A program made the position numbers and the translations under genes. A stretch of 29,086 nt of DNA from a virus (Duplodnaviria > Caudoviricetes): positions 1 through 29,086 of the IMG/VR virus record IMGVR_UViG_3300020440_000062; one strand, given 5' to 3'. Shown in pieces: positions 1 through 15,027 of this stretch (position 1 is the stretch's first letter; each line of letters begins with the position of its first letter). The notes under the pieces were generated by a model. The model saw only the letters and a list, made by a program, of their open reading frames with translations, made no database searches and was not told the DNA's origin.

Positions 1-1936
1 TTGCTCTCCCATCTCCTCCACCAAAAAGATTACTGAAAAAGCCTTTGATTTCCTCGCCATAACCTTCGTAGGCCGCTAGTCCACCACCTACAGCAGTTCC
101 TAAAGCGGCGCCAAGGGCAGTACCGATAATAGGAACCATTGAGCCAATGGCCGCACCTGTTAAAGCACCACTTGCCGCTCCTGTGGCAATTCCTAATCCT
201 TTTTGCACATCATTGTCTGATTCTGCTCCTGCTTCGGCCATGTTCATTCCAGCATTGACTCCAAATGCACCTGCTCCGATCATTCCTAGTCTGCCTAAAA
301 ATCTCATTCCTTTTTGGAAGATCCCTGCTTTTCCTTTGCCGCCTCCACCGCCCATGAAGCCACCACCCATTCCTCCGGCGGCTTTAATTCCTGCTGTTGT
401 TCCTGTTTTGACGGCGAGGAATAATGGCACTGTGTCTTTTAAAATACCAAAGCCTGTTTGTATTCCTTCCTTCATGACAAAGAGTAAACCTGCCATCTCT
501 GGGGTTAATTTTTTGACATCTTCGGAAAGTTTTCCTAGCATATCATTCAGAGATCCTGTGCCTGTGCCTACAAAATCGTCTACCAGTTTTAAAAATCCGG
601 TTTTTGTGCTGTCAACTGCACTTGTTAAGTTTTTGAGATTAGTTTCAAACTCTGTGAACTCTTGTGTAAGTTTGTCTGCTTCTTTTTGTTGCTCTCCGAT
701 TGCGTCTGCTGTGTTCAAACTTGCTGTTGCCAGTTTGTTTACTTCACCTTGTAGTCTTAAAAACTCAACTGTACCAGTCGCTGTTGTTTCATTGAATCTT
801 TTGTTTGATCTCTGTGCCGCATCTCTCATTCTAGTCATGGCTTCTTCGACTGTGATGTTTCCTGCGATTAGATCTTTTACAATTTGTTGTGACTCCGGTA
901 TGTTTTGTGCAAACTCGATTGCCGCGTCTGTTACAGGATTACCTGCTGTTGCAATTAAGTCTTGTAAACCTGTTGACAAACCAGGGGCAAGTTTTGTAAT
1001 ACCTGCTTCAAACTGTTGTAAGTTCTGTGCAACTATTGGAGTCTGTGTATTGAGCATTGCAAGGAATCTTTCGTTGGCAAGCGACGCCTCCATTTGTCTT
1101 GCAAGATCTTCTCTTTGTTGACCTGTCAGCCTTGCCAGTCTATCAAGTTGTTCTATGTAATCTCTAGCAGTCTTTAACTGTTGTGCCTCTGACTGTTGTG
1201 TAAGCAAACCTGTTCTTCTTTGTAGTGTTAGGTTGCTTATCAAGAATTCATTTATTTCTTCAACCGTAAGTCCAAGTGGTGCCAAGAAACTAATGTTGGC
1301 ATCTCTAAATTGTTTTGATAAACCTGCAAATTGTTTTGCACCTTCTGTGGTAGTACCAAATAACAATGCCAATGCCTCAGAATTTTTACCAATCATGTCA
1401 ACAAAATCAGTGATTGGTATTCCTGCGTTCGCTGATGCTTCTCGTAATTGTATTAGGTTCTGTCCAAATGTTGCACCAACAGATGACAATGTTCTAAATG
1501 CATCGGTTGATTCACCAAATAAATTTCCAATCCTTGCAAGTGATTCACCAACTCGACCAAACTCGGCAAGAGACGCTGTGTAATCTTGTATTCTGCCGGT
1601 ACCTTCACTGACTGCTTTTGAAAATTTCCCAACAAAACTTGTTGTTTTGACCGTGCCTTTTGCAAATCCGGTTGCCGCTTTTTCAGATAAACCAATTGAT
1701 TCGCCTACGTTTTTAAAATTTTGCTCTAATTTGGAAGATACACTAAACAGCCTTTTTCTCTGCTCAATTGCTCTCTTGATTTCTTTTTGTTCTTGTTCAG
1801 ATAATTTGCTGTTCTTTTCTAATGCTCCGCCGGCCTTGATCAGGCTTTTACGGTAATTCTCCAACTGCTGTGAATTGGTAATTTTTGATAATTCTTCTAA
1901 TATTTTCTGTACTTCAGGATCCATTTTTTCTACCAT
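1..1936 (-). CDS. Tail tape measure-like protein (3'-partial, runs off the left edge)
   Basis: Not in the ORF track because there is no stop in the window. Manual translation from ATG 1936 (alternative in-frame ATG 1924): MVEKMDPEVQKILEELSK...; long helical Ala/Gln/Leu-rich sequence (e.g. DYIEQLDRLARLTGQQREDL) ending in a Gly-zipper hydrophobic stretch (GAASGALTGAAIGSMVPIIGTALGAALGTAVGGGL). It is preceded by a minus-strand TATAAATA and lies next to chaperone genes. Confidence 0.8.
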   Translation of the reverse strand, partial: MVEKMDPEVQKILEELSKITNSQQLENYRKSLIKAGGALEKNSKLSEQEQKEIKRAIEQRKRLFSVSSKLEQNFKNVGESIGLSEKAATGFAKGTVKTTSFVGKFSKAVSEGTGRIQDYTASLAEFGRVGESLARIGNLFGESTDAFRTLSSVGATFGQNLIQLREASANAGIPITDFVDMIGKNSEALALLFGTTTEGAKQFAGLSKQFRDANISFLAPLGLTVEEINEFLISNLTLQRRTGLLTQQSEAQQLKTARDYIEQLDRLARLTGQQREDLARQMEASLANERFLAMLNTQTPIVAQNLQQFEAGITKLAPGLSTGLQDLIATAGNPVTDAAIEFAQNIPESQQIVKDLIAGNITVEEAMTRMRDAAQRSNKRFNETTATGTVEFLRLQGEVNKLATASLNTADAIGEQQKEADKLTQEFTEFETNLKNLTSAVDSTKTGFLKLVDDFVGTGTGSLNDMLGKLSEDVKKLTPEMAGLLFVMKEGIQTGFGILKDTVPLFLAVKTGTTAGIKAAGGMGGGFMGGGGGKGKAGIFQKGMRFLGRLGMIGAGAFGVNAGMNMAEAGAESDNDVQKGLGIATGAASGALTGAAIGSMVPIIGTALGAALGTAVGGGLAAYEGYGEEIKGFFSNLFGGGDGRA

Positions 1937-3137: not shown

Positions 3138-4097
3138 ATGTTCAAAGGAGCATACACACCGCAGGACTCTGCACTATTTGGATCTTTTGAATGTCCAGAA
3201 GAGGTCGACATACCGTTGACCGACATAGAGGCCTATAAACTATGGCCAAATCTCAATTGGATGTACGACAAACCAAAACTGTGTGAAAGCCTCAAAGTCA
3301 AACACAACTTCTCTGGCATAATGCCTGAAGAGTTTCCGGTGTTTCAGAAACCCATTCAGAATTTACACGGACGTGGACAGAACACAAAACTTATTTCAAA
3401 CCCAAAAGAATTTGAGAAGAGTTATGTGCCGGGAACCTTTTGGATGCCGGCATACACAGGAAACCATTGGAGCGTGGACGTGATCATGCTGAACGGTAAG
3501 GTGGCCGATTATTTCTGTGTGCTGGGACATCCATCTTTTGACGGAATGTTTGACTATTGGGAATACAAGGGAAGAGTAGACGAGAACATCGGCAAGTACG
3601 ATGAACATATGTTACAGGCATCTATCAAAGCAACTGACTTCTGTGAGAAACATCTTCAAGATTATGGATGGAGCGGAGTGATAAACTTTGAACTGATAGG
3701 TGAGAACATAATCGAGGTGCACTTGAGAATGAGTCCACAATTTGCAGTGATGTACGGTGAGGCAGTCTTGAAACAGTTGCCTGACGTTTACGCAGGAAAC
3801 AAGTACAAGAAAGATCCCATGAAGCAGACACCACCCGGCGGATATGTTTTACCTATGTTTGTAGAAGAGGCTCCTAAACACGGTTTCGAGGTCAACGATA
3901 AGAAAATTAAAGAAGTTCTCGACGACGAGAACGTGCGCCACGTCAGTTTTGAGTACACTGGAGATAACAATCTGGAAGATATCGCACACCCACCCGGCGG
4001 ATTTTACCTGGGAAGTATCACAGTCACAAATCTAGACAAGGGCAAAGAACAACGTAAAGAACTTTTCAAAGCATTTGTATCAAGAGATAGTCATTAA
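3138..4097 (+). CDS. ATP-grasp-fold protein of unknown substrate
   Basis: 319 aa; MYDK, FPVFQKPIQNLHGRG (KP lysine plus Gly loop), GNHWSVD and INFELIGENIIEVHLR (E...ExxxR metal-binding end) follow the ATP-grasp motif order. Confidence 0.6.
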   Translation: MFKGAYTPQDSALFGSFECPEEVDIPLTDIEAYKLWPNLNWMYDKPKLCESLKVKHNFSGIMPEEFPVFQKPIQNLHGRGQNTKLISNPKEFEKSYVPGTFWMPAYTGNHWSVDVIMLNGKVADYFCVLGHPSFDGMFDYWEYKGRVDENIGKYDEHMLQASIKATDFCEKHLQDYGWSGVINFELIGENIIEVHLRMSPQFAVMYGEAVLKQLPDVYAGNKYKKDPMKQTPPGGYVLPMFVEEAPKHGFEVNDKKIKEVLDDENVRHVSFEYTGDNNLEDIAHPPGGFYLGSITVTNLDKGKEQRKELFKAFVSRDSH

Positions 4098-4099
4098 TG

Positions 4100-4146
4100 A
4101 GATGTCTAAAGACATCTAAACTTCGCTTACGCTCGTTTGTTTTTTT
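4100..4146. terminator. Tandem hairpins plus T-tract after the ATP-grasp stop (terminator-like or ssDNA signal)
   Basis: AGATGTC-TAAA-GACATCT (4100-4117), then AAAC...GTTT (4118-4138; minus strand AAACGAGCGTAAGCGAAGTTT), then T7 at 4140-4146. Confidence 0.45.
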
Positions 4147-4520
4147 AAAAACGCAACTGTAAGAACAAAATGCTTAACGCATTGCGTTTACTGTGGCAGA
4201 TTTTGAAGTCACAATTCTGCTGTTTCCAGCAGAACTGACTTTGTCTCTGTGGCGAGTGTCGAAGTCACCATACATCGCTACCAAATTTGGCCGGGCGGTT
4301 GTGCGGTACCCGTTTGCTCATTCCTAACAACGCGAGCCTGTAAAGTCTTTGTATGATAATCCATTACAGACTTGAGGGTGCTTCTTTTTCCTTGCAGTGC
4401 CTCATCTTTTTTGCCGTGTGCATCTTGTGATTCACCACCTACTATTAGTTCGGCGCACTTCACGTTTTACCTGGATGCTATTTTTGCCTGTGATTTTAAT
4501 TTGAGAAAGTTTGTGCCTAT
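4145..4520 (-). ncRNA. Putative large structured non-coding RNA (~375 nt), family not recognised
   Basis: About 475-nt gene-free gap in an otherwise packed genome; locally GC-enriched (33/60 GC at 4261-4320); upstream sigma70 promoter; GAAA-tetraloop hairpin; several helices that need G-U pairs available only on the minus strand; possible pseudoknot; terminal 8-bp stem running into a U tract. Confidence 0.65.
4191..4268 (-). repeat. Two 22-nt imperfect direct repeats GTGACTTC-N7-GCCACAG flanking a hairpin
   Basis: 4247-4268 (GTGACTTCgacactcGCCACAG) and 4191-4212 (GTGACTTCaaaatctGCCACAG), 17/22 identical, 56-nt period. Confidence 0.85.
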
Positions 4521-4526
4521 CACTAG

Positions 4527-4555
4527 TATATAACACACACAAATTTTGAGGTCAA
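4527..4555 (-). promoter_or_regulatory. sigma70-type promoter firing into the non-coding element
   Basis: Minus strand TTGACC (4555-4550), 17 nt, then TATATA (4532-4527) preceded by TG (extended -10); overlapping TATACT at 19-nt spacing. Confidence 0.65.
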
Positions 4556-4572
4556 TCTTTTTGAGTTTAAAT

Positions 4573-5013
4573 ATGGATATGAGTTGGATTTATCAAGAAA
4601 AACCTATTAATGAATTACCAAATGATTGTGTTGGCTTTGTGTATCAGATTACAAATACAACTAATGGTAAGATGTATATTGGAAAAAAATTAGCAAAGTT
4701 TAGTAGGTCGAGGAAACCTTTAAAGGGCAGAGTCAACAAAAGAAGATATAAAATTGAATCGGATTGGCAGGATTATTATGGATCAAGTGATGCATTAAAT
4801 GAAGATATACAAAAAATTGGTAAAAGTAAATTCAAAAGAGAAATATTGTTTTACTGTAAATCAAAAGCAGAACTTTCTTACGTGGAGGCCAGGGAACAGT
4901 TTGCACGTAAAGTTCTTGAAACAGACGATTACTACAATGGTCATATCCGTGTGAGAATACATGGATCGGGAATTATGAGAGAGAAATCAACTAAAGGAAT
5001 ACTCAGATCATAA
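4573..5013 (+). CDS. Stand-alone GIY-YIG (Seg-like) endonuclease
   Basis: GFVYQITNTTNGKMYIGKK, YYGSS, FKREIL, conserved E (YVEAREQF) and YYN; likely start ATG 4573 or 4579 rather than TTG 4546; no C-terminal NUMOD/HTH module visible. Confidence 0.85.
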   Translation: MDMSWIYQEKPINELPNDCVGFVYQITNTTNGKMYIGKKLAKFSRSRKPLKGRVNKRRYKIESDWQDYYGSSDALNEDIQKIGKSKFKREILFYCKSKAELSYVEAREQFARKVLETDDYYNGHIRVRIHGSGIMREKSTKGILRS

Positions 5014-5048
5014 AAAAAGCCTGTACAAATAATGCACAGGCTTATTTT
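5012..5048. terminator. Bidirectional intrinsic terminator between convergent genes
   Basis: AAGCCTGT (5017-5024) / ACAGGCTT (5036-5043) stem, A7 run on the left (U tract for the minus strand) and TTATTTT on the right. Confidence 0.8.
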
Positions 5049-5068
5049 AACGTTAAATTAAAATCCAA

Positions 5069-5260
5069 TTACGAAGCGGCCTTCTCGGCGTTTTTCGCTT
5101 CCTGAATTTCTTTTCTTCTTGCTTTGATCAATTTAGACAAAGATGCTAGTGCCTTTCTTGCTCTAGTGGCACTTGCTTTTACGCCCTTCTCTGTGAACTT
5201 TTGGTTCTCTTCAGAGTATGACTGAATCTCTGTCATGATCTGTTCATGTGTTTGTGACAT
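5069..5260 (-). CDS. Histone H1-like Hc1 family small basic protein
   Basis: 63 aa with KFTEKGVKASATRARKAL...RRKEIQE, matching the KGxKAxxxRARK core of Hc1-like proteins; AAGGA SD upstream. Confidence 0.7.
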   Translation of the reverse strand: MSQTHEQIMTEIQSYSEENQKFTEKGVKASATRARKALASLSKLIKARRKEIQEAKNAEKAAS

Positions 5261-5301
5261 AATATTACATCCTTTTTTTGTTATATTAGTTATAACTCTT
5301 T

Positions 5302-5332
5302 AATTTAAGCAGAAAAGAACTGGTTTTGTCAA
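5302..5332 (-). promoter_or_regulatory. Possible sigma70 promoter for the Hc1-like gene
   Basis: Perfect TTGACA (5332-5327) with weak -10 candidates (TTAAAT or TAAATT at 18-19 nt). Confidence 0.45.
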
Positions 5333-5339
5333 GTGAAAT

Positions 5340-7115
5340 CTAAATTACTATTTCAACATCGTTGGAATAATTGGTAAAACCGTTTTCTTTTACAACTTTT
5401 AATACAGAATTCACTCTGCTTACCAATTCATCTTTGTGTGAAATCAAGAAAATATTTTTATTTTGTGTTCTCGACATATCTTTTAGAACCGCCATCGATG
5501 ACTCAACTCCTGATGTGTCCATTCCAGCGTCAACTAATTCGTCGATGAACAATAAATTAATTTGTTGGTAAAGAGATTCCCAAACATCTCTGAATGCCCA
5601 ACTCAAACTCAATATCAATCTATTTCTTTCACCTCTACTTAAATTATCAAAATCTAATTCTCTACCAAGTTCTTCGATCTGTACTGTGAGATCCGAAAGG
5701 AAAGTAACTGTGTGTGGCAATTTTACCTGACCGAGATAGTATGCCAGTCTTTGGTTCAAATATGTCAAGTTTTGTTCAATTATTCTAGTTCTAACAAAGG
5801 AGTCTTTTGCAGTCAAAAGTTTGTACAAGAAATCTTGGTGTCTTCCTAAATCTTCTAGTTCATTTATATTAGTGAAGTCAACCTTTTGGATCGCTTTTTT
5901 GCTTAACTCGTCGATTTGTTCTTGATAAGGGTCGGCTTCCTTTTCTAATCTCTCTAATTGATTTTTGAGATCTGCTAATGATCCTTTATGGTTATATGCT
6001 TCATCTATAGAGTCATAATACGTGTCTGGCAATGCACCAATATCGCCAATAGAATCGATTCCTTCTGTTACAATTTTAAGATCTCCTTCGAGTTTATCTG
6101 CGTAGGTTTGAGATTCGTTGAGAGTTTGATTCAATTTGCTTACCAATTGTGTATGTTTGTCAGTATGTAATTCTTGTTCGCAAGTTGGACACTTTTGTTG
6201 TTCGGCATATTTTAAATCTTTTTTAGTCTTCTCTACTTGTAGGTTTGCTTTGGTAAGAGAATCTTCGTGGTATGCTTTTTCTTTTTGTAAACTTCTCAAT
6301 GCTGTTTGGTTTTCATTATGTTTTACAACTTGTTTGTGTGCAGTAAGTTCCTTTTCAATGTCAACTTTTTCTAAATCTTCTATTGCTGTTTTTAATTTTT
6401 CTACGTTTTCATGGTTTTGAGATTTCCATGCATTGCTTCTAATCTGTAAGGAATCTATGCTTTGTTCAATCTTTTCATTTGATGATGTAATAGCGTCTAT
6501 TCTAAATTTTTCTTCTTGCACCTCAGTTTTGTTAGACTTCATCTGTTCTTTTAAAAGATCTGCTTTCTCACTTAACAATGTGATACCTAATAGTTGTTCA
6601 ATTATTTCTCTTTGTTCTGCTTGTTTTGTGGCCAAGAACGGTTGTGTGTAAGTATTCAATGCTATGATGTTTTTAAACATTGCATGAGTCATACCCAATA
6701 GTTTATTAATTTCTTTTTGTGTTTCTCTGTTTTCGCCTTGTGCCTCATTGGCATCGGCATTTTGTTCAATATTGTTTGCAAAGAATTTAAACAGTTGTGG
6801 TTTTCTACCTCTTTGTATTGTGTAAGATACATTATTTTTTTCAAAAGTAACAGACACCATCATGTCTTTACTATTAGTTTTATTAACCAAATTGTCTCGT
6901 CTTATTTGTGTTAATGCTTCACCAAAAAACACATAACTGATGGCATTGATTATAGTAGTTTTGCCTGTACCATTTCTAGCACCGGCATCGTCGCCACCCA
7001 GGTCCATATTTTCGCCAAGTACAAGCACGAGATTTTTATTAGCAAAATCTATGCTCTGTGTGGCATTACCCACACTCATGAAGTTTTTTACAGTTAAGGT
7101 TTTAATTGTTAACAT
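5340..7115 (-). CDS. gp46: Recombination endonuclease ATPase subunit (T4 gp46 / Rad50 / SbcC-like)
   Basis: Walker A NGTGKTT, coiled coil with zinc hook CPTC, signature LSRGE, Walker B LLFIDE, H-loop ISH. Confidence 0.95.
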   Translation of the reverse strand: MLTIKTLTVKNFMSVGNATQSIDFANKNLVLVLGENMDLGGDDAGARNGTGKTTIINAISYVFFGEALTQIRRDNLVNKTNSKDMMVSVTFEKNNVSYTIQRGRKPQLFKFFANNIEQNADANEAQGENRETQKEINKLLGMTHAMFKNIIALNTYTQPFLATKQAEQREIIEQLLGITLLSEKADLLKEQMKSNKTEVQEEKFRIDAITSSNEKIEQSIDSLQIRSNAWKSQNHENVEKLKTAIEDLEKVDIEKELTAHKQVVKHNENQTALRSLQKEKAYHEDSLTKANLQVEKTKKDLKYAEQQKCPTCEQELHTDKHTQLVSKLNQTLNESQTYADKLEGDLKIVTEGIDSIGDIGALPDTYYDSIDEAYNHKGSLADLKNQLERLEKEADPYQEQIDELSKKAIQKVDFTNINELEDLGRHQDFLYKLLTAKDSFVRTRIIEQNLTYLNQRLAYYLGQVKLPHTVTFLSDLTVQIEELGRELDFDNLSRGERNRLILSLSWAFRDVWESLYQQINLLFIDELVDAGMDTSGVESSMAVLKDMSRTQNKNIFLISHKDELVSRVNSVLKVVKENGFTNYSNDVEIVI

Positions 7116-8124
7116 CTAAATTATTATAAATCGCCATTAAAATATTTTTGTCATAAGTTTCAGAATCAACGCCGTCTAATTGTTTTAACACAATTTGATC
7201 AACTGAGTCAAATTTTTCAACTTTTACCAGTGGTTGTTGTGCTTGATCAATTTGTTCTGGAATTAGTTGTAATTCTCTTAATTTGTATTTTTCCATGAAC
7301 GTTTCTCTTATAAAGTTTGCTTCTTCGTAAGATATCTTTATGTCTAATGAAACTCTCACATACATATTTGGTTGCAACATATCGTCGGCATCGTTTAATA
7401 GTTTACTAATTTTGAAGTTTCTATATCTTGGCATATCAGGCCAATTGATATATTTTGGTTTGCCATCCCATTCCAATATCATCATACCACGTTCGTCATC
7501 TCCAGAGTCTGCGTAGTTGTGCGGAAACGCATTTCCCATATAATGAATATTGTTGCTAATCTGCCTTTTATGGAAGTGTCCTGTGAACATATATTCTTGA
7601 TTCTTAAAATGTTCTGCTTTGATAGTACCTGTGTCAGGCATATCCACCATTGCATTCATTTTAAAGTATGGCAATTCAAAATGGCCAAACATATACCTTG
7701 CTTTTATTTCTTTTATCTTTTTCCATTCATCTTGCACCACCCATGGAATAATTGCCACATCGTTCTCAATAATCCATTCATTTACAATATGGACATTTGG
7801 AATATATCTTACAAACTCCATGCTATTAATTTCTCTTTTGTCTCTGTAAAACAAATCGTGATTGCCCATTATGACATAAACTTTCTCGAAAGCCTTGCCT
7901 AACCTTTCCATGTTTGAAACTGTGTAGTTCATAGTGGATACGTTTGTGGATGATCTGTGGTGATGCCAATCGCCTAAAAATATGCAAGTTTCACAACCGT
8001 GTGCTTTTGCTTGTTCTATAAACCAGTGAACAAACGATTCACAATCATCATTGTGTATTCTGCTGTTCCCCTTCATACCAAAGTGTATGTCAGTAAAGCA
8101 GGCGACTTTATTAAAAAAGTTCAT
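7102..8124 (-). CDS. gp47: Recombination endonuclease nuclease subunit (T4 gp47 / Mre11 / SbcD-like)
   Basis: Metallophosphoesterase motifs DIH, GD, GNHD, GH and GHFH; directly upstream of gp46. Confidence 0.95.
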   Translation of the reverse strand: MNFFNKVACFTDIHFGMKGNSRIHNDDCESFVHWFIEQAKAHGCETCIFLGDWHHHRSSTNVSTMNYTVSNMERLGKAFEKVYVIMGNHDLFYRDKREINSMEFVRYIPNVHIVNEWIIENDVAIIPWVVQDEWKKIKEIKARYMFGHFELPYFKMNAMVDMPDTGTIKAEHFKNQEYMFTGHFHKRQISNNIHYMGNAFPHNYADSGDDERGMMILEWDGKPKYINWPDMPRYRNFKISKLLNDADDMLQPNMYVRVSLDIKISYEEANFIRETFMEKYKLRELQLIPEQIDQAQQPLVKVEKFDSVDQIVLKQLDGVDSETYDKNILMAIYNNLDVNN

Positions 8125-9062
8125 TACTTTTTACTTTCTTTATATTTTAACAGTGAAAAATCTCTTTCACCTGTTTTTTTAAAATGTCTATTAAACAATG
8201 CCATTGATGTTTTAGTTGCCACCCGCACAGCACTATTTCCTGTTTTTTCTTTTTGTTTGTAGGTCGCGGTTCCCATTTCATTCGCACTCTGTCTTGTGAA
8301 CGAAGGATTCATTCCAGCGTCTTCTAGTATGTCGTCTCTGATGTTTTGATTTCTTTTTTCAATGTTTAATATTCTTGTAAAACTATTAGTTATCGCCGCT
8401 GTGTAGTAGGCAAACGGATTCTCGGATTTGGATTCATCAAATTGTAAACCTATTTGACTCAATTGCATTAGTGCTTGTGATCTCATCTCATCGTTGTACG
8501 TATAACCTCTCCAGTTTGATCTTGTGCCATATCTTTCACAGAGTTTCATAAACATCATTGCTAGATTTTTTGTAATTGTACCGTGGTCGACACTGAAATA
8601 GCCGTTACTCATTCCTCCAATCCAATGAGATTTGCCAACGCATTTTGGTTTTGCTTTCTTGTCTAACCTATAATGTTGGAAAGGTGGAAAATTACATTTT
8701 GCATGATGATCCGATGTTTGTTTAGGATTCCTTTTTCTTGTGCTGTCCAAAGGCACGTGATCAAAAGTCATTACACGAAAAACTAAATCTGTTTTGTCTA
8801 TTGTCCTAGGCGATACAGTAAAATCTGATAATTTTATCTTTTTTTGTCCTTGTGCTTTTGCTTCTTCCCAAGCAGTCACAGTCATTTTTTTTGCTTTATT
8901 TTTTCTTGCTTGAGCGATTGAACTGGCATTTATTTTGGAAAGTGCAGGCAGTATTATATCATAGTCAGCATCTTTGTCGGCCACGTATGAACTATACGTA
9001 CCCTTACTTTTGTGTATTTCTTTCAGCAGATCGCGGTTGTTTAAGTATTTTACTCGTTTCAT
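8124..9062 (-). CDS. gp55: Late-transcription sigma factor, T4 gp55-like
   Basis: YLNNRDLL N-terminus, NWRGYTYNDEM, FDESKSENPFAYYT...SFTRILNIEK; 55-47-46 order as in T4-like phages; TATAAATA boxes present in the window. Confidence 0.85.
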   Translation of the reverse strand: MKRVKYLNNRDLLKEIHKSKGTYSSYVADKDADYDIILPALSKINASSIAQARKNKAKKMTVTAWEEAKAQGQKKIKLSDFTVSPRTIDKTDLVFRVMTFDHVPLDSTRKRNPKQTSDHHAKCNFPPFQHYRLDKKAKPKCVGKSHWIGGMSNGYFSVDHGTITKNLAMMFMKLCERYGTRSNWRGYTYNDEMRSQALMQLSQIGLQFDESKSENPFAYYTAAITNSFTRILNIEKRNQNIRDDILEDAGMNPSFTRQSANEMGTATYKQKEKTGNSAVRVATKTSMALFNRHFKKTGERDFSLLKYKESKK

Positions 9063-9127
9063 AAGTTATAACCTTTTAATTAAAATGTATTGCCGTACGG
9101 GGAATTAAATGCGCCTATAATTGTGCC

Positions 9128-9135
9128 TATAAATA
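9128..9135 (+). promoter_or_regulatory. T4-type late promoter for the baseplate operon
   Basis: Exact TATAAATA 58 nt upstream of ATG 9194. Confidence 0.75.
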
Positions 9136-9142
9136 TGTTTAA

Positions 9143-9171
9143 AGTATACGAAATTTAATTTGAAAATGCAA
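9143..9171 (-). promoter_or_regulatory. sigma70-type promoter for gp55-gp47-gp46
   Basis: Minus strand TTGCAT (9171-9166), 17 nt, TATACT (9148-9143). Confidence 0.65.
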
Positions 9172-9193
9172 CCTTTTAAAAAGAATTAAAAAT

Positions 9194-10102
9194 ATGGCAG
9201 ACACTTGGAACACTGTAGACGTTGATAATGAACCTAATAACCCAGGCTTTAATGCGGACAAAAAATCCGTAGCAAAAACGATAGCGGGTGCGGGCGGTAA
9301 TATTTTCAACAGGACACTAGGTAGACTATTTGGTGCTAAATTACCACCAGGAGCCGAAGGTCCAATGGCGACCAATACCCAAGCGGCATGGTCAAAAAGA
9401 ACTAATCAAACCGACTGGCGTGTCAAACTAACGTTAAGGAAAAACGAAGATATGTATAATTTCTTTTTTGGCAACGCGAAAACAGGTGATACAAGTCAAA
9501 CAAAATTGCTAGGTCCTTTGGCAAATGACGGCGGAATTGTTTTTCCTTTAACACCATCGATTATTATACAACATCAAGCCAATTATAATGCTTTAGCACA
9601 AACACATTCAAATTATCCATTTTATGCATATGAAAATTCTGAACCTGCAAACTTGACGATTGTAGGAGAATTTCCTGTGCAAAATCAAAGTGATGCACAA
9701 TACTGGGTTGGTACATTGCATTTTTTAAGATCAGCAAGTAAAATGTTTTTTGGTGGAGATGATACTGCCAACAGAGGAAACCCACCTCCGATACTTACTT
9801 TGAATGGATATGGAAATCATGTCTTCAAAAATGTTCCTGTAATTATTACAAGTTTTACAGTTGAACTTACTCAAGGAGTTGATTATATTTCGACTTCACA
9901 GAATAATAAAATAGCAACACCAAATCAAACTTCACAAACTTACACACCAAATGATAGTTTGCCAGAAACATGGGCGCCTACACAAAGTATCTTTACAGTT
10001 CAGATACAACCAGTATACTCAAGAGATACAATTAAAAAATTCAGTATGCGACAATTTGTTGATGGAAATTTAAGTAATAAAGACGGAGTAGGATTCATTT
10101 AA
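9194..10102 (+). CDS. Baseplate tail-tube initiator-like protein (gp48/gp54-type)
   Basis: 302 aa; IVFPLTPSI, GNPPPILTLNGYG and NVPVIITSFTV are typical of tube-fold baseplate proteins; first gene of the baseplate operon. Confidence 0.6.
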   Translation: MADTWNTVDVDNEPNNPGFNADKKSVAKTIAGAGGNIFNRTLGRLFGAKLPPGAEGPMATNTQAAWSKRTNQTDWRVKLTLRKNEDMYNFFFGNAKTGDTSQTKLLGPLANDGGIVFPLTPSIIIQHQANYNALAQTHSNYPFYAYENSEPANLTIVGEFPVQNQSDAQYWVGTLHFLRSASKMFFGGDDTANRGNPPPILTLNGYGNHVFKNVPVIITSFTVELTQGVDYISTSQNNKIATPNQTSQTYTPNDSLPETWAPTQSIFTVQIQPVYSRDTIKKFSMRQFVDGNLSNKDGVGFI

Positions 10103-10401
10103 TGGCAAAATATTCAAACACTTCTCCATACTTTGCTACAGAAGAAAATAATATTAGTTTAGACTTTTTTGTGCCAAGAACAATTACGGCCGAGGACGAC
10201 GATATATCTTATACTATCGATAGAATATATGCTTACAGACCCGACCTACTTGCATATGATTTATATGGCAATCCAAGACTTTGGTGGGTGTTTGCACAAA
10301 GAAATCCAGACTCAATAGAAGATCCAGTCTATGATTTCGCTCCGGGGGTTGTAATACAGTTGCCAAAATTAAGCAATCTGCAAAAAGATTTAGGAGTTTA
10401 A
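10102..10401 (+). CDS. Baseplate wedge protein, gp53-like / LysM-like
   Basis: RPDLLAYDLYGNPRLWWVFAQRN...IQLP motif; TAATG-coupled to the upstream gene. Confidence 0.8.
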   Translation: MAKYSNTSPYFATEENNISLDFFVPRTITAEDDDISYTIDRIYAYRPDLLAYDLYGNPRLWWVFAQRNPDSIEDPVYDFAPGVVIQLPKLSNLQKDLGV

Positions 10402-10402
10402 T

Positions 10403-12520
10403 ATGCCCGGCGAATATTACTCATCTCCGAGTGAAGGTAGCACACTTTCAAAATCTAAAGATGAAAAAGGCAAAAATAACGATGTAATAAAATCCAAAGC
10501 CATTGTTCCAAATGCTTTACATCAATATGCATCTTATAATTACATCTGGACTTTATCTGGATTATCAGAAGAAGAGATAAGAGATCCAAAGTTATACAAA
10601 ACGAATCCTCCGCACGATATTATTGCACGTTCCGGCGGCATAGGTCCATCAACTTCTTTTAACAATGCTAGTCCTTTTGATACACCAAAAGATGTTTCAG
10701 GGGACGGAATGGGAATGGAGGCGGTATATGCTAAAGAAAGAAATAAAAGTAGAATCGAAACAGCAGAGGCCTCTAATTTGATATTAAAAAGAAATCACGA
10801 TATTTTTTTTAAAAGAGTAGTGATGACTGGTTCTTATGTGCCTAATCCCGATAGGAAACTTATGAATTTTAACAAACTTGAAATGGATTTAGAAGAACCT
10901 TTAGGTATAACTTTATTTGAAAAACTTAGAGCCGCGGCCTATAACAACGGTTATTTAGATCATACTGATGCACCATATCTTTTAACTTTAGAATTCGTAG
11001 GCATGGACTCAACTGGTAAAGTAATTAGGAATCCAGTGCCAAAAAAATATTATCCAATCAAAATTTCAAATTTTATAATGAATTTAAATGCGGGCGGCAC
11101 AACATATTCAGGCATAGCAGTACCATGGACTGAGTTTGGAATGTCTAACAGGTTTTTGTATACGAGGGGACAATTCAAAGTTGAAGGAAATTCTTTACGT
11201 GAAAAATTTGATTCTATCACAGAAGGATTAAAATCAAACCAAGAAAAAGAAATTGCTAAAAATATTAAGCAACACATAGATGAATACGTAATACAAATAC
11301 ATCCAGATTTCAATACCGAAAAATATACTGGTGATGTAGCAGACGTCAAGCAAATGCAATCAAGTGATTTTGAAACCGAAGGTAAACAAACAACAAAATC
11401 AGAGATGCAAGTAAATCCTGGCACAGCAGTTAGTAAACTTATCGAATCAATCATGCTGTCTACTCCATATTACAATGATCTAGTTAAAAATGTTGTTGAA
11501 AAATATTTTGGCAAAGACGGAAAACCTTCAAGTGGTGTAGGAGGCGTTATAGATGGTGAAATGGTTCCTTGGTTTAAAATTTTAACATCTGTGCAAACTG
11601 AAAAACCATTTGATGATATTACAAAAATGCACAAAAAGAAAATTATATATTCAGTACAACCTTATCAAATTCATATTTTAAATTTTGCCGTACCAGGTTT
11701 AAGTGGTGCGGATATGATGGGCAAATATGTTAAAAAAGATTATCAGTACATCTTCACTGGCCAAAATTTAGATATTTTAGATTTAGATATAAACTACAAG
11801 GCGGCTTTCTTTCAAAGTTCTTTGACTTCGGGATCGAGAGCGGATACAGGAAACGATGCAAAGGATACTTCGGGAGATGAGAATGCTAATTTATATTATG
11901 GACAATCTAGATATCCAGAACCAGAACTACCTTTAAGAAGTTATCCTGGCATTAGTAGTACAGAAGATGCAGTTCAACGTGCAGATAAAAGTAATAAGAC
12001 GCAAGAATTTTTTGATTATCTTATAAATGGCACTGGCTTTATGGTCAGAGTAGAAATGAAGATAATGGGAGACCCTTCGTTTATAGGTGATCATTATGCC
12101 GAACCTATCAAAGTAATGGGTGATGGAAAAATACAAAAAGTTGAAAGGGTTGGGTCATATGGTGGTAATGTTTGGGACGAACAACAAGGTGCGTTTGACC
12201 TTGACCAAGGAGAACCGTTAGTAACATTGCACTTCAGATATCCTACAGACTTCGACGAGGTATCTGGAAATTATAAATTTAAATCTCAGGAAGAAATTCA
12301 GTTCTCTGGTTTATATAAGGTCTCGAGAGTAGAAAGCACTTTCGATAATGGTCAGTTTACTCAAATACTTACGATGGTGAGAATGAATAATCAAAAAGGC
12401 GATAAGAAATCGGCCAAACCATTAATTAACAAAGAGAAGATTAACTACCAAGATGCCAAACCAAAAGCATACAACGTAACTGATATTGATGCGGCAGGCA
12501 GAATAAGAGGCGGATTATAA
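10403..12520 (+). CDS. Putative baseplate hub protein (gp27/gpD-like)
   Basis: 705 aa between the gp53-like and spike genes; C-terminal KIMGDP and FSGLYKVSRVESTFDNGQFTQILTM are typical of hub proteins. Confidence 0.6.
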   Translation: MPGEYYSSPSEGSTLSKSKDEKGKNNDVIKSKAIVPNALHQYASYNYIWTLSGLSEEEIRDPKLYKTNPPHDIIARSGGIGPSTSFNNASPFDTPKDVSGDGMGMEAVYAKERNKSRIETAEASNLILKRNHDIFFKRVVMTGSYVPNPDRKLMNFNKLEMDLEEPLGITLFEKLRAAAYNNGYLDHTDAPYLLTLEFVGMDSTGKVIRNPVPKKYYPIKISNFIMNLNAGGTTYSGIAVPWTEFGMSNRFLYTRGQFKVEGNSLREKFDSITEGLKSNQEKEIAKNIKQHIDEYVIQIHPDFNTEKYTGDVADVKQMQSSDFETEGKQTTKSEMQVNPGTAVSKLIESIMLSTPYYNDLVKNVVEKYFGKDGKPSSGVGGVIDGEMVPWFKILTSVQTEKPFDDITKMHKKKIIYSVQPYQIHILNFAVPGLSGADMMGKYVKKDYQYIFTGQNLDILDLDINYKAAFFQSSLTSGSRADTGNDAKDTSGDENANLYYGQSRYPEPELPLRSYPGISSTEDAVQRADKSNKTQEFFDYLINGTGFMVRVEMKIMGDPSFIGDHYAEPIKVMGDGKIQKVERVGSYGGNVWDEQQGAFDLDQGEPLVTLHFRYPTDFDEVSGNYKFKSQEEIQFSGLYKVSRVESTFDNGQFTQILTMVRMNNQKGDKKSAKPLINKEKINYQDAKPKAYNVTDIDAAGRIRGGL

Positions 12521-14034
12521 TGGCTGAAAATATACATTTAACAGGTGACGTTTTCACAACCAAAGCACCGGGTAAAGATCAATCCTACGGTACCGTTGGA
12601 TCCGGTCCTTACATAGGAATAGTCAAGCAAAATAAAGACCCTGAAAAAATGGGAAGATTGGGTGTGGTGATTCCAAACCTAGCAAAAGCACCAAACACAA
12701 AATCAAATGAATTAATAATCTGTGAATATCTAACACCATTCTATGGAGCAAAAAGTCTTCAGGTTACAGGAAAAGATAAACCATACAGTTATGATGAAAG
12801 TCAGCATTCATATGGTATGTGGGCAGTGCCACCCGATATCGATACACGAGTCCTTGTAATTTTTGCTGAAGGCAAAATATCAAATGCATTTTGGATAGGT
12901 TGCGTACAGGATTCCTACACAAATCACATGGTTCCTGGTCTAGGTGCATCAACGCAGACAAGTGTAGATACATCAGACGAGAGTCAAGCAGAGACTAAAA
13001 AAGAACAAACTTATGGAACTGATTATGTGCCTGCAGGCGAGGCAAATAGGAATTTTTGGTCGCAACAAGGAGGCAAGTACGAAAATATTAAAAAGCCTAT
13101 ACATCCATTTGCAGAGACTTTAAGGGAACAAGGCCTAATCCAAGACACAGTAAGGGGAACAACATCATCATCTGCAAGGAGAGAATCTCCTAGTAATGTT
13201 TTTGGTATCAGCACCCCGGGTCCTGTAGATAAAACAAAACCAACAAAACAACTTGGCCCAACTGACGCACTAGAAGATGTACATACTTCAAGACGTCCAG
13301 GACACACTTTTGTTATGGATGACGGTGATAATAATGGAGACAACCATCTTGTACGTTTGAGAACAAGTTCTGGTCATCAAATATTATTGCACGACACAGA
13401 AGGTTGTGTTTACATAGCAAACGGATCAGGTGAAGCATGGATGGAGTTTTCAAACAATGGAACTATAGATATCTATTCCGGCAACAGTATTAATGTAAGG
13501 TCAAGCACGAATATGAATTTTCATAGCGACGCTAATATTAGTTTTTACGCAGACGGCGAAATAAAAATGAAAGCAGGCGGAAAACTTGTAATGGATGGCA
13601 GTAGAATACAAGCCATGTCTGACAACGATATTATGATTCATGCAGAAAATGGATCTATAACAACCAAAGCAGTCAACAGTAATATTTTAAGTTACAGTGC
13701 ATCTGGTCAACAACATCATTCAGGTGGTGATATACACATGGCAGGGACCGAAGTACATATGAATTCAATTGCGGCGGACAGTGAAATAGTTACTACTATG
13801 ATTAGAACAGATATGCAGTCCACTGATCCATCAGGTACTAACACACTTGTTGTGCCAATTGCAGATGTCAATACCTCACTCAAAGGTTTAGCACAACCAT
13901 TAAAATCAAGTCCATTAGCAAATGATTCGATGGACGGAATGCGTGTACCAACACACGAACCATATGCAGAACACTTTGGAAAAAAAGTTGGACTTAAAAT
14001 GTTTACAGGAGCAGGCAAACAGCCTTGGAAATAG
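12520..14034 (+). CDS. Baseplate central spike, gp5/VgrG-like (OB fold plus beta-helix), no lysozyme domain seen
   Basis: DPEKMGRLGVVIP, WAVPPDIDTRVLVIF, GHTFVMDD, RTSSGHQILLHD, beta-repeat region, RVPTHEP near the C-terminus. Confidence 0.8.
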   Translation: MAENIHLTGDVFTTKAPGKDQSYGTVGSGPYIGIVKQNKDPEKMGRLGVVIPNLAKAPNTKSNELIICEYLTPFYGAKSLQVTGKDKPYSYDESQHSYGMWAVPPDIDTRVLVIFAEGKISNAFWIGCVQDSYTNHMVPGLGASTQTSVDTSDESQAETKKEQTYGTDYVPAGEANRNFWSQQGGKYENIKKPIHPFAETLREQGLIQDTVRGTTSSSARRESPSNVFGISTPGPVDKTKPTKQLGPTDALEDVHTSRRPGHTFVMDDGDNNGDNHLVRLRTSSGHQILLHDTEGCVYIANGSGEAWMEFSNNGTIDIYSGNSINVRSSTNMNFHSDANISFYADGEIKMKAGGKLVMDGSRIQAMSDNDIMIHAENGSITTKAVNSNILSYSASGQQHHSGGDIHMAGTEVHMNSIAADSEIVTTMIRTDMQSTDPSGTNTLVVPIADVNTSLKGLAQPLKSSPLANDSMDGMRVPTHEPYAEHFGKKVGLKMFTGAGKQPWK

Positions 14035-15027
14035 ATGTCAGGAAGAACTAACATAAAAGGTACAAAGGGTTACGATCCAGATTACGCAAAAGAAATTCAT
14101 AAAAAGAATATCGAATCAGCGGGTGCATCTGGGCAAGGATTTTACAATGCCGAAATGGGAAAAGAGTTTGCAAAAGATTTGAAAAATATTTTAGAGCCAC
14201 ACGTCACTGCTTTAAAAAATGAAATTGATCCTATTTGGAAAAATAATTCAGCAAGTCCCGGCAGTTCAGAATTTGTATCACAATTGAACAGGACAAGTAG
14301 TATTTTTGCAGTAAGGTCAGGACAAATAAAAGCAGATTTAGATGCTTACTTAGAAGAAAAAGGACTTAAAGATTCTACCGATTTGGAGTCAGTTCAAAAA
14401 GCGAAAAATGAATTTTTAACAAAGTATGCTTCTACGTATGGAGTACCAACAGAAACATTTGACAAAAAATCTAAAACATCAAATGTCAAAGCAACAACTG
14501 GATCGGTTGATATACAAAGTATTTCAAAATCGGCTCCAATAAACGCATCGGCTCTTAAAGATCAAGTATTTGTAAATACTGACGCTGTAATGAGCAAGTC
14601 GGGAGATTTTTCAAAATTAGTTAATACAAACATCAAGAAAGCAACAGGCAATTTGAGTTTTGATGATATTGGCAGTAAAATTGGAAATTTTGCTGAGGCC
14701 GGAACTGCATCAATTAGTAACTTACTGGGAGACATCAAGAACCCAGATTCACAGATCGGCGGAATGATTACTAAAACTTTAGGAAAGGTCGAAAGTTTAT
14801 CAACAAATTTTGACGCAAATATGTTCAATAAGAATATTCCTAATATGCCAGATCTTAAATCGCTTGTACCCAAGGGTGCATCTAATGTAAATATATCAAA
14901 TGCTGTTTATAAAACAACAGTTGGTAACAACGTTGTTAGTGTCACTGAAGTAAAATCAGTGATAGCAGATACAGGTAAAACTTTAGGATCAGTATCTAAA
15001 AGCAGTGGAAAGGTTTTTGACATTTAA
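14035..15027 (+). CDS. Hypothetical virion-associated protein
   Basis: 330 aa, Lys/Ser-rich, between the spike and gp25; starts in frame immediately after the spike TAG. Confidence 0.65.
   Translation: MSGRTNIKGTKGYDPDYAKEIHKKNIESAGASGQGFYNAEMGKEFAKDLKNILEPHVTALKNEIDPIWKNNSASPGSSEFVSQLNRTSSIFAVRSGQIKADLDAYLEEKGLKDSTDLESVQKAKNEFLTKYASTYGVPTETFDKKSKTSNVKATTGSVDIQSISKSAPINASALKDQVFVNTDAVMSKSGDFSKLVNTNIKKATGNLSFDDIGSKIGNFAEAGTASISNLLGDIKNPDSQIGGMITKTLGKVESLSTNFDANMFNKNIPNMPDLKSLVPKGASNVNISNAVYKTTVGNNVVSVTEVKSVIADTGKTLGSVSKSSGKVFDI

Follow-up and report, generated by a model that had tools for sequence, protein, structure and literature searches.

What does the one long gene-free gap in this stretch of phage DNA encode? 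The window, by which we mean the whole stretch analysed (29,086 nt), is T4-like jumbo-phage DNA that encodes baseplate genes, gp46/47 and a late sigma factor. Its phage genes find their best isolate matches in PA5oct, Phosso, Atu_ph07 and 121Q-like phages. Positions 4098-4572, flanked by a 319-aa ORF and a SegE-like GIY-YIG ORF, form the longest ORF-poor gap in the window. An earlier note had recognised this gap as gene-free and had offered a choice between a stand-alone structured RNA and a primer RNA of the ColE1 or T4 kind. It had also called the gap GC-enriched; at 41% GC, against 45% in the neighbouring 500 nt, the gap is not distinctive in this respect.

A structured RNA on the minus strand

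Comparison of homologues shows that the gap encodes a structured, doubly pseudoknotted minus-strand RNA of an undescribed family, predicted to run from ~4520 to 4150. The element was found on the same strand (E < 1e-24) in 63 of 80 viral loci fetched by the GIY-YIG protein, these being the best 80 of 569. Motif scans yielded at least 120 viral and at least 118 metagenome loci, and the totals are estimated at ~230 and ~720, part of the metagenome matches being due to chance. In an alignment of 28 copies, each below 88% identity, 97.1% of cells paired and 34/60 pairs were compensatory. None of 500 shuffles was as good, and slid controls paired in only 32-42% of cells. Because G-U cells outnumbered A-C cells 152 to 10 in the homologue alignment, the RNA strand is the minus strand, as the earlier note had argued from G-U pairs. 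Single-sequence folding was modest (z −2.16 minus, −1.79 plus), and it is therefore the homologues that decide on structure. Their covariation in the syntenic gap bears out the proposal of a new pseudoknotted RNA.

The sigma70-type promoter (4527-4555, minus strand) that had been read as TTGACC-17-TATATA is present at 4555-4550 and 4532-4527, with a predicted start at ~4520. A simple promoter scan omitted it from its list; the pattern TTGAC-N15-19-TAYAWW is kept in 37/56 homologues. Further along the minus strand lies a variable leader (4485-4518) in which AGGCA is repeated at 4518-4514 and 4489-4485; relatives have as many as four copies. A 5' domain (4420-4478) comprises helices 4478-4474/4424-4420 and 4464-4460/4430-4426, each with 3/5 pairs compensatory, and is followed by a hairpin (4373-4404) with a conserved GCUCU..GAAA.AG loop, a motif also found in PA5oct copies.

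The loop-bearing helix and its pseudoknot, both proposed previously, contain the top mutual-information pairs. We traced the helix (4335-4372) as 11 bp, 4372-4362/4345-4335, with 9/11 pairs compensatory, and the first pseudoknot as loop 4358-4350 with 4274-4266, with 6/9 compensatory. An invariant core junction (4275-4333) holds a second pseudoknot, formed by GUUG (4331-4328) and CAAC (4301-4298), the latter lying within the loop of a CGGG/CCCG hairpin; it is invariant in marine copies, and 5/5 of its pairs are compensatory in 15 enterobacterial-family copies. That hairpin had been noted before with coordinates one base off; it lies at 4312-4292. The GNRA hairpin (4212-4237) held up as a strong helix between two repeat units (98% of cells paired, 5/11 pairs compensatory). 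The last proposed helix, 4189-4149 (ACGCA/TGCGY), formed in 33/56 homologues and failed in the rest. It falls in a variable 3' segment (4140-4190) that carries a U run at 4151-4147.

The earlier note had recognised no tRNA, tmRNA, RNase P or group I/II intron core in the gap, and our searches agree. None of the Rfam 15 covariance models, including RNase P, tmRNA, group I/II introns, GOLLD and ROOL, scored at gathering level (best E 0.59, a 27-nt hairpin), and ARAGORN detected neither a tRNA nor a tmRNA gene. The internal 61-aa ORF is not a gene, because it is open in just 2/56 homologues; on both of these grounds we rejected a tmRNA. A nuclease-associated guide RNA (HEARO/omega-like) was likewise rejected, the element showing no constant linkage to one nuclease gene.

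Contigs within the gap occurred in 8/8 metatranscriptomes examined, out of 15 RNA runs matching the element. Their right ends were at 4433, 4461, 4493, 4505, 4509, 4509, 4512 and 4534, those of four runs (4505-4512) falling near the predicted start. Left ends in two studies were at 4156 and 4157, and one run had an additional contig spanning the promoter into the GIY-YIG gene. These contigs and their ends are a weak hint of transcription, because they are unstranded and come from runs selected by the element's own sequence words, with no DNA-run control. A relative in PA5oct, ncRNA004, is transcribed at a low level that is highest early (0.08, 0.03, 0.02%; PMC7318152 Table 1).

The genes around the gap vary. 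The SegE-like GIY-YIG gene (4573-5013, plus strand; PF19835, E 4e-38) is divergent from the RNA; it is missing or reversed next to many element copies, and isolates have other neighbours. It is thus a usual neighbour without obligatory partnership. A TTTAAA-containing motif (4562-4575, plus strand) lies immediately 5' of its start codon and backs onto the RNA promoter; most close relatives keep this motif, which we take, from the T4-type consensus, to be possibly a late promoter. The 319-aa ORF on the other side (3138-4097, plus strand) has raised GC (~45%) and a sole match to a PHROG of unknown function (E 4e-9). It is probably a recent insertion, because it adjoins the element in just one other locus among at least 120 motif loci. 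A phage-encoded, histone H1-like Hc1 protein (5069-5260, minus strand; PF07432, E 4e-13) shares 77-94% identity with its counterparts in many close marine relatives. A 324-aa ORF without a family match (147-1121, plus strand) lies antisense within a tape-measure-like gene and is probably a shadow ORF. The window is located on contig C10, and the bin is 2.03 Mb. Contigs C13, C2, C22, C24, C6, C29 and C19 of bin G000 are phage-like, with 35-38% GC against 28-30% in the main contigs, and probably represent this jumbo phage, or a relative of it, in a bin shared with a bacterium.

Matched hexamers and a downstream GA motif

Among the helix signals in the mutual-information analysis, one pair of segments, 4253-4247 and 4197-4191, covaried by identity (z 7-13). 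These segments belong to bipartite direct repeats of ~22 bp. Unit 1 (4245-4268) consists of GTGACTTC at 4268-4261 and the hexamer GCCACA at 4253-4248, and unit 2 (4191-4212) of GTGACTTC at 4212-4205 and the same hexamer at 4197-4192. Hexamer 1 equalled hexamer 2 in 56/56 copies, which carried seven variants at a spacing of 47-60 nt without fixed helical phase. The identity extended to 127/127 distinct type-A copies, the type filter having been passed by 99/125 further loci. When the repeat columns were left out of tree building, 11 changes were required for either hexamer alone and again 11 for both together, so that all 11 minimum changes were shared. Divergent marine types found with model R1 (E < 1e-8) mostly carried matched pairs of their own, similarly spaced.

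Hexamer 1 lay inside a local hairpin loop in 45/56 homologues, and its complement was absent from the RNA strand in 56/56 copies. The tracts thus stay identical, lack a partner on the RNA and, as described below, are partly copy-specific; the simplest explanation would be base pairing between tract 1 in the RNA and the template strand at tract 2. Repeat unit 2 would then be the site at which the hexamer-1 loop pairs with the template strand. An RNA-DNA helix that tolerates wobble pairs might permit G/A states, which the hexamers never showed. One flanking position had G/A asymmetry (10 vs 0) and another did not (15 vs 11); a broader wobble-direction signal (53/172, partial parse) was discarded when proper alignment reduced it to one position.

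Past the apparent RNA end, a GAGC..GCGA motif followed hexamer 2 at 19-70 nt in 51/56 marine copies. In the window this tandem-GA hairpin motif (4119-4138) reads GAGCGTAAGCGA at 4134-4123, ~55 nt past hexamer 2. The tandem-GA pattern has a background of 0.12-0.24 per kb per strand. In its strict form it occurred 3' of 6/12 enterobacterial copies and 0/3 PA5oct copies. The last feature is a terminal hairpin, AGATGTC-TTTA-GACATCT (4100-4117), which in an alignment by eye is kept while its sequence changes.

Relatives in isolated jumbo phages

Sequence comparison places the marine, Agrobacterium, Pseudomonas and enterobacterial elements in one family. Direct blastn of the gap against isolates gave chance matches only, a marine HMM did not match the isolate loci, and model R1 failed to find any of the enterobacterial loci. 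Only marine copies went into model R2, whose two best hits on 1.41 Mb were the PA5oct 13-kb copy (E 0.0013) and the CBB 94-kb copy (E 0.0036), these E values being rough; R2 missed 13 of the 15 known isolate sites in that sequence. R2 also found an Atu_ph07 copy (E 8.7e-6) that bridges the branches, combining the marine core loop with the enterobacterial CCCC/G6 hairpin. Read by eye, the repeats of this copy in marine framing are ACTC-ATGAAT and TCT-ATGAAT, and those of a paralogue 107 kb away are ACGCAT and CCGCAT.

The syntenic slot of the window is gene-free in 121Q and CBB and largely so in PA5oct, and the 121Q element recurs in conserved form throughout the RaK2-like phages. We counted four same-strand copies in 121Q, five in CBB and three in RaK2, on the majority gene strand and at sites orthologous by flanking genes. 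PA5oct has three, one of which is the published ncRNA004; isolate relatives overall carry 2-5 co-oriented copies per phage. Of the apparent moves of the element in RaK2, Erwinia and Yersinia, the one in RaK2 was rejected: the match there proved to be a paralogue, whose site is orthologous to that of another 121Q/CBB copy. Copy gaps in CBB were 52-84 kb (min-gap P 0.005). Even spacing was weak elsewhere (P 0.05 in 121Q, 0.13 in RaK2, 0.19 in PA5oct), and these genomes are not independent.

The three bases preceding the repeat in 121Q, CBB and RaK2 matched within a copy and differed between copies (ATC, ACC, ACG). Because the coupling is partly copy-specific, it would act in cis. The enterobacterial repeat core is genome-wide (CGTCAA, CGTCAG, CTTCAA), with a repeat spacing of 49-100 nt; a trans factor or gene conversion would also explain this shared core. 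Gene conversion does act, as copies tend to cluster by genome and the 3' halves of two RaK2 copies are 93% alike.

Marine models detected no copy in Phosso, Vibrio 2.275.O or Melnitz, and a related marine contig of 197 kb, rated 55% complete, held one copy only. In Phosso the syntenic slot is a 1-kb GC-rich gene-free gap (9760-10773 in locus coordinates), unmatched by the marine models and followed by RNase HI; it is possibly a different or far-diverged RNA. We rejected the adjoining RNase H as evidence, given that no element was detected there. Vibrio phage 2.275.O has a superfamily-2 helicase-like gene (6999-8699 in locus coordinates) in the slot that holds the element in relatives.

A copy occurred in 2/5,426 E. 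coli genomes, and the one examined sits on an integrase island at ffs. This island in NZ_AP027515 (~10 kb, locus 4958-14857) carries an IS3-split integrase, a 303-aa unknown protein and the RNA element with GA-type hairpins beside it, together with DUF4326, DUF488 and dual-OB genes and a resolvase, and is a candidate jumbo-phage satellite. The 303-aa protein gave only a sub-threshold Lin1244_N match (E 0.022) and had no phage homologue. Among GTDB pattern hits, 4/34 scored as true copies; all four are on short MAG contigs and are probably mis-binned phage.

A candidate replication primer and its comparison with known systems

The structured RNA common to both of the original options stands. 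As to function, we lean with modest confidence towards the primer option and suggest, from sequence features and their comparison with known systems, that the RNA is a ColE1-like replication primer acting in cis and that the locus is an origin. A primer appears preferable to a stand-alone RNA because of the matched direct hexamers, the downstream motif identical to one in ColE1 and the co-oriented, dispersed isolate copies. The early peak in the low-level transcription of PA5oct ncRNA004 also counts for a primer. The RNA would be transcribed from the TTGACC-17-TATATA promoter and fold with its two pseudoknots, and its looped hexamer 1 would anneal to the template strand of the DNA at the matching hexamer 2. 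This pairing would nucleate an R-loop; RNase H or a similar enzyme would trim the RNA, presumably with the 3' segment (4140-4190) as the RNA-to-DNA switch zone, and the RNA would be extended as the leading strand. On the displaced strand, GAGCGTAAGCGA is predicted to fold as a hairpin and serve as a loading signal for helicase and primase, or a primosome. RNase H (PF00075) is encoded in 121Q, in CBB and on the bacterial contig of G000, and was not found in PA5oct or the 197-kb marine fragment.

Several observations count against a primer. The earlier note had suggested GC skew as a check for an origin; skew at fourfold sites showed no switch in 8 genomes or contigs and tracked gene direction, and a single bidirectional origin was rejected for this reason. 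We also count against it the lack of a carrier among 72,556 plasmids, the single copy in the 197-kb marine fragment, the genome-wide core of the enterobacterial repeat, the incomplete GA motif outside marine copies, the weak even spacing, the limited wobble asymmetry and the three phages in which no copy was detected.

The strongest rival, which we consider unlikely, is a stand-alone ornate RNA acting in trans, a GOLLD/ROOL-like scaffold or a protein sponge in which the hexamers are twin sites for one phage protein or RNA. The large doubly pseudoknotted fold with its invariant loop would suit such an RNA, as would the AGGCA repeats in the leader, the repeat core common to all copies of one enterobacterial genome and the gap contigs in all eight metatranscriptomes, runs selected by the element's words. 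It leaves unexplained, however, the copy-specific matching, the dispersed fixed positions and the conserved ColE1-like motif past the apparent 3' end, and the PA5oct paralogue is rare rather than abundant in the transcription data of PMC7318152.

We give a smaller chance to a cis-acting R-loop or conformational switch that serves another DNA process, such as a recombination hot spot, a packaging or DNA-entry signal, or control by a cis antisense RNA over unit 2. For cis coupling, a complementary strand supplied by the locus itself is enough, replication skew is absent, and an endonuclease is the divergent neighbour at the window's slot in marine phages, 121Q, CBB and PA5oct. That nuclease is missing at other copies, however; a promoter scan and inspection of relatives by eye revealed no antisense promoter at a consistent place, and the ColE1-like order of features speaks for replication. 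It is improbable that a phage initiator protein uses the repeats as DNA iterons, with the RNA merely opening or activating the origin: their bipartite form and the genome-wide enterobacterial core would fit, whereas the variable spacing in both branches, the perfect identity across 11 changes, the differing pairs within Atu_ph07 and the position of unit 1 in an RNA hairpin loop would not. Least probable of all is a small RNA element, mobile or selfish, with repeats left as target or template-switch scars, since despite its multiple copies and its presence on an integrase-bearing E. coli island, its sites are orthologous between distant phages, its repeats are internal rather than flanking, and neither a reverse transcriptase nor a transposase is found among the window's genes.

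If the primer reading is extended to the family, a broader picture emerges that we put forward tentatively. In jumbo phages like RaK2, PA5oct and Atu_ph07, from oceans to enterobacteria, replication may start at ribozyme-sized, self-addressing primer RNAs with a re-programmable hexamer loop. These would be protein-free multi-copy origins convergent with ColE1, perhaps borrowed by small chromosomal islands for replication during jumbo-phage infection. The literature searched held no description of this RNA family, nor of any origin or structured RNA family for this jumbo-phage group. The core motif was absent from six searchable supplement files of PMC10690425; a listing elsewhere in that supplement is conceivable. 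A primer would provide the first candidate replication origin for a large jumbo-phage group, extend structured-RNA priming beyond ColE1 plasmids and mitochondria, and make available a programmable phage-dependent replicon. The model predicts that a single hexamer change kills function and that a matched double change restores it, and culturable members, the 121Q-like coliphages, make it testable now. Should it prove false, a large phage RNA and its identity-coupled repeats would still call for an explanation.

GOLLD, ROOL, OLE and raiA are RNAs of the same size class, with pseudoknots and a phage location. The element differs from them in having no Rfam match, and we know of no direct-repeat coupling or downstream DNA-type hairpin motif in these RNAs. 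PA5oct ncRNA004 is a paralogue of the syntenic-slot copy (E 2e-19) and of the 13-kb copy found by the marine model (E 3.5e-23), and differs in that the strict GA motif is absent. The part of PMC7318152 that covers ncRNA004 presents it as a transcribed region only, without structure or function. T4 resembles the phage element in having several dispersed, promoter-driven origins, described as transcript-primed R-loop origins (PMC3016281), in a T4-like genome. However, a T4 origin such as oriF or oriG needs no more than an AT-rich unwinding element with a middle promoter and forms its R-loop without sequence specificity, whereas the phage element keeps a 370-nt conserved fold and matched repeats.

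For ColE1 (NC_001371), we observed only two G6 runs on the RNA II strand, at 928 (a predicted hairpin loop) and at 1175. An A run at 1193-1197, which we take to be the origin, is followed on the same strand by GAGCGTAGCGA at 1332, presumably the primosome site. GAGCGTAGCGA is the sole tandem-GA match on both strands of ColE1's 6646 bp and is letter-for-letter a common marine variant. The octamer CTCGTCAG (1167-1174) before the origin-proximal G6 equals repeat 2 of several CBB-type copies, which may be chance. In work by Masukata and Tomizawa from 1990, the ColE1 RNA loop reportedly pairs with the template strand. In ColE1 priming the hybrid persists, trimming is by RNase H, and helicase is loaded onto the non-template strand (PMC5043065); the phiX174 primosome site is a hairpin (PMC5778457).

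A ColE1-type replicon by homology was rejected: blastn with a 121Q copy and a marine copy against 72,556 plasmids gave no match, and there was no Rfam match. Unlike RNA II, to which it has no sequence similarity, the phage element has two pseudoknots, shows no RNA I or Rop, and lies in a ~350-kb phage, in multiple copies in isolates; its hexamer is variable and repeated 47-60 nt apart, whereas ColE1 uses G6 tracts ~247 apart. The two share a promoter and a long non-coding transcript that folds. In both, a looped tract recurs on the sense strand close to the 3' end, with a GAGCGT(A)AGCGA motif downstream on the same strand.
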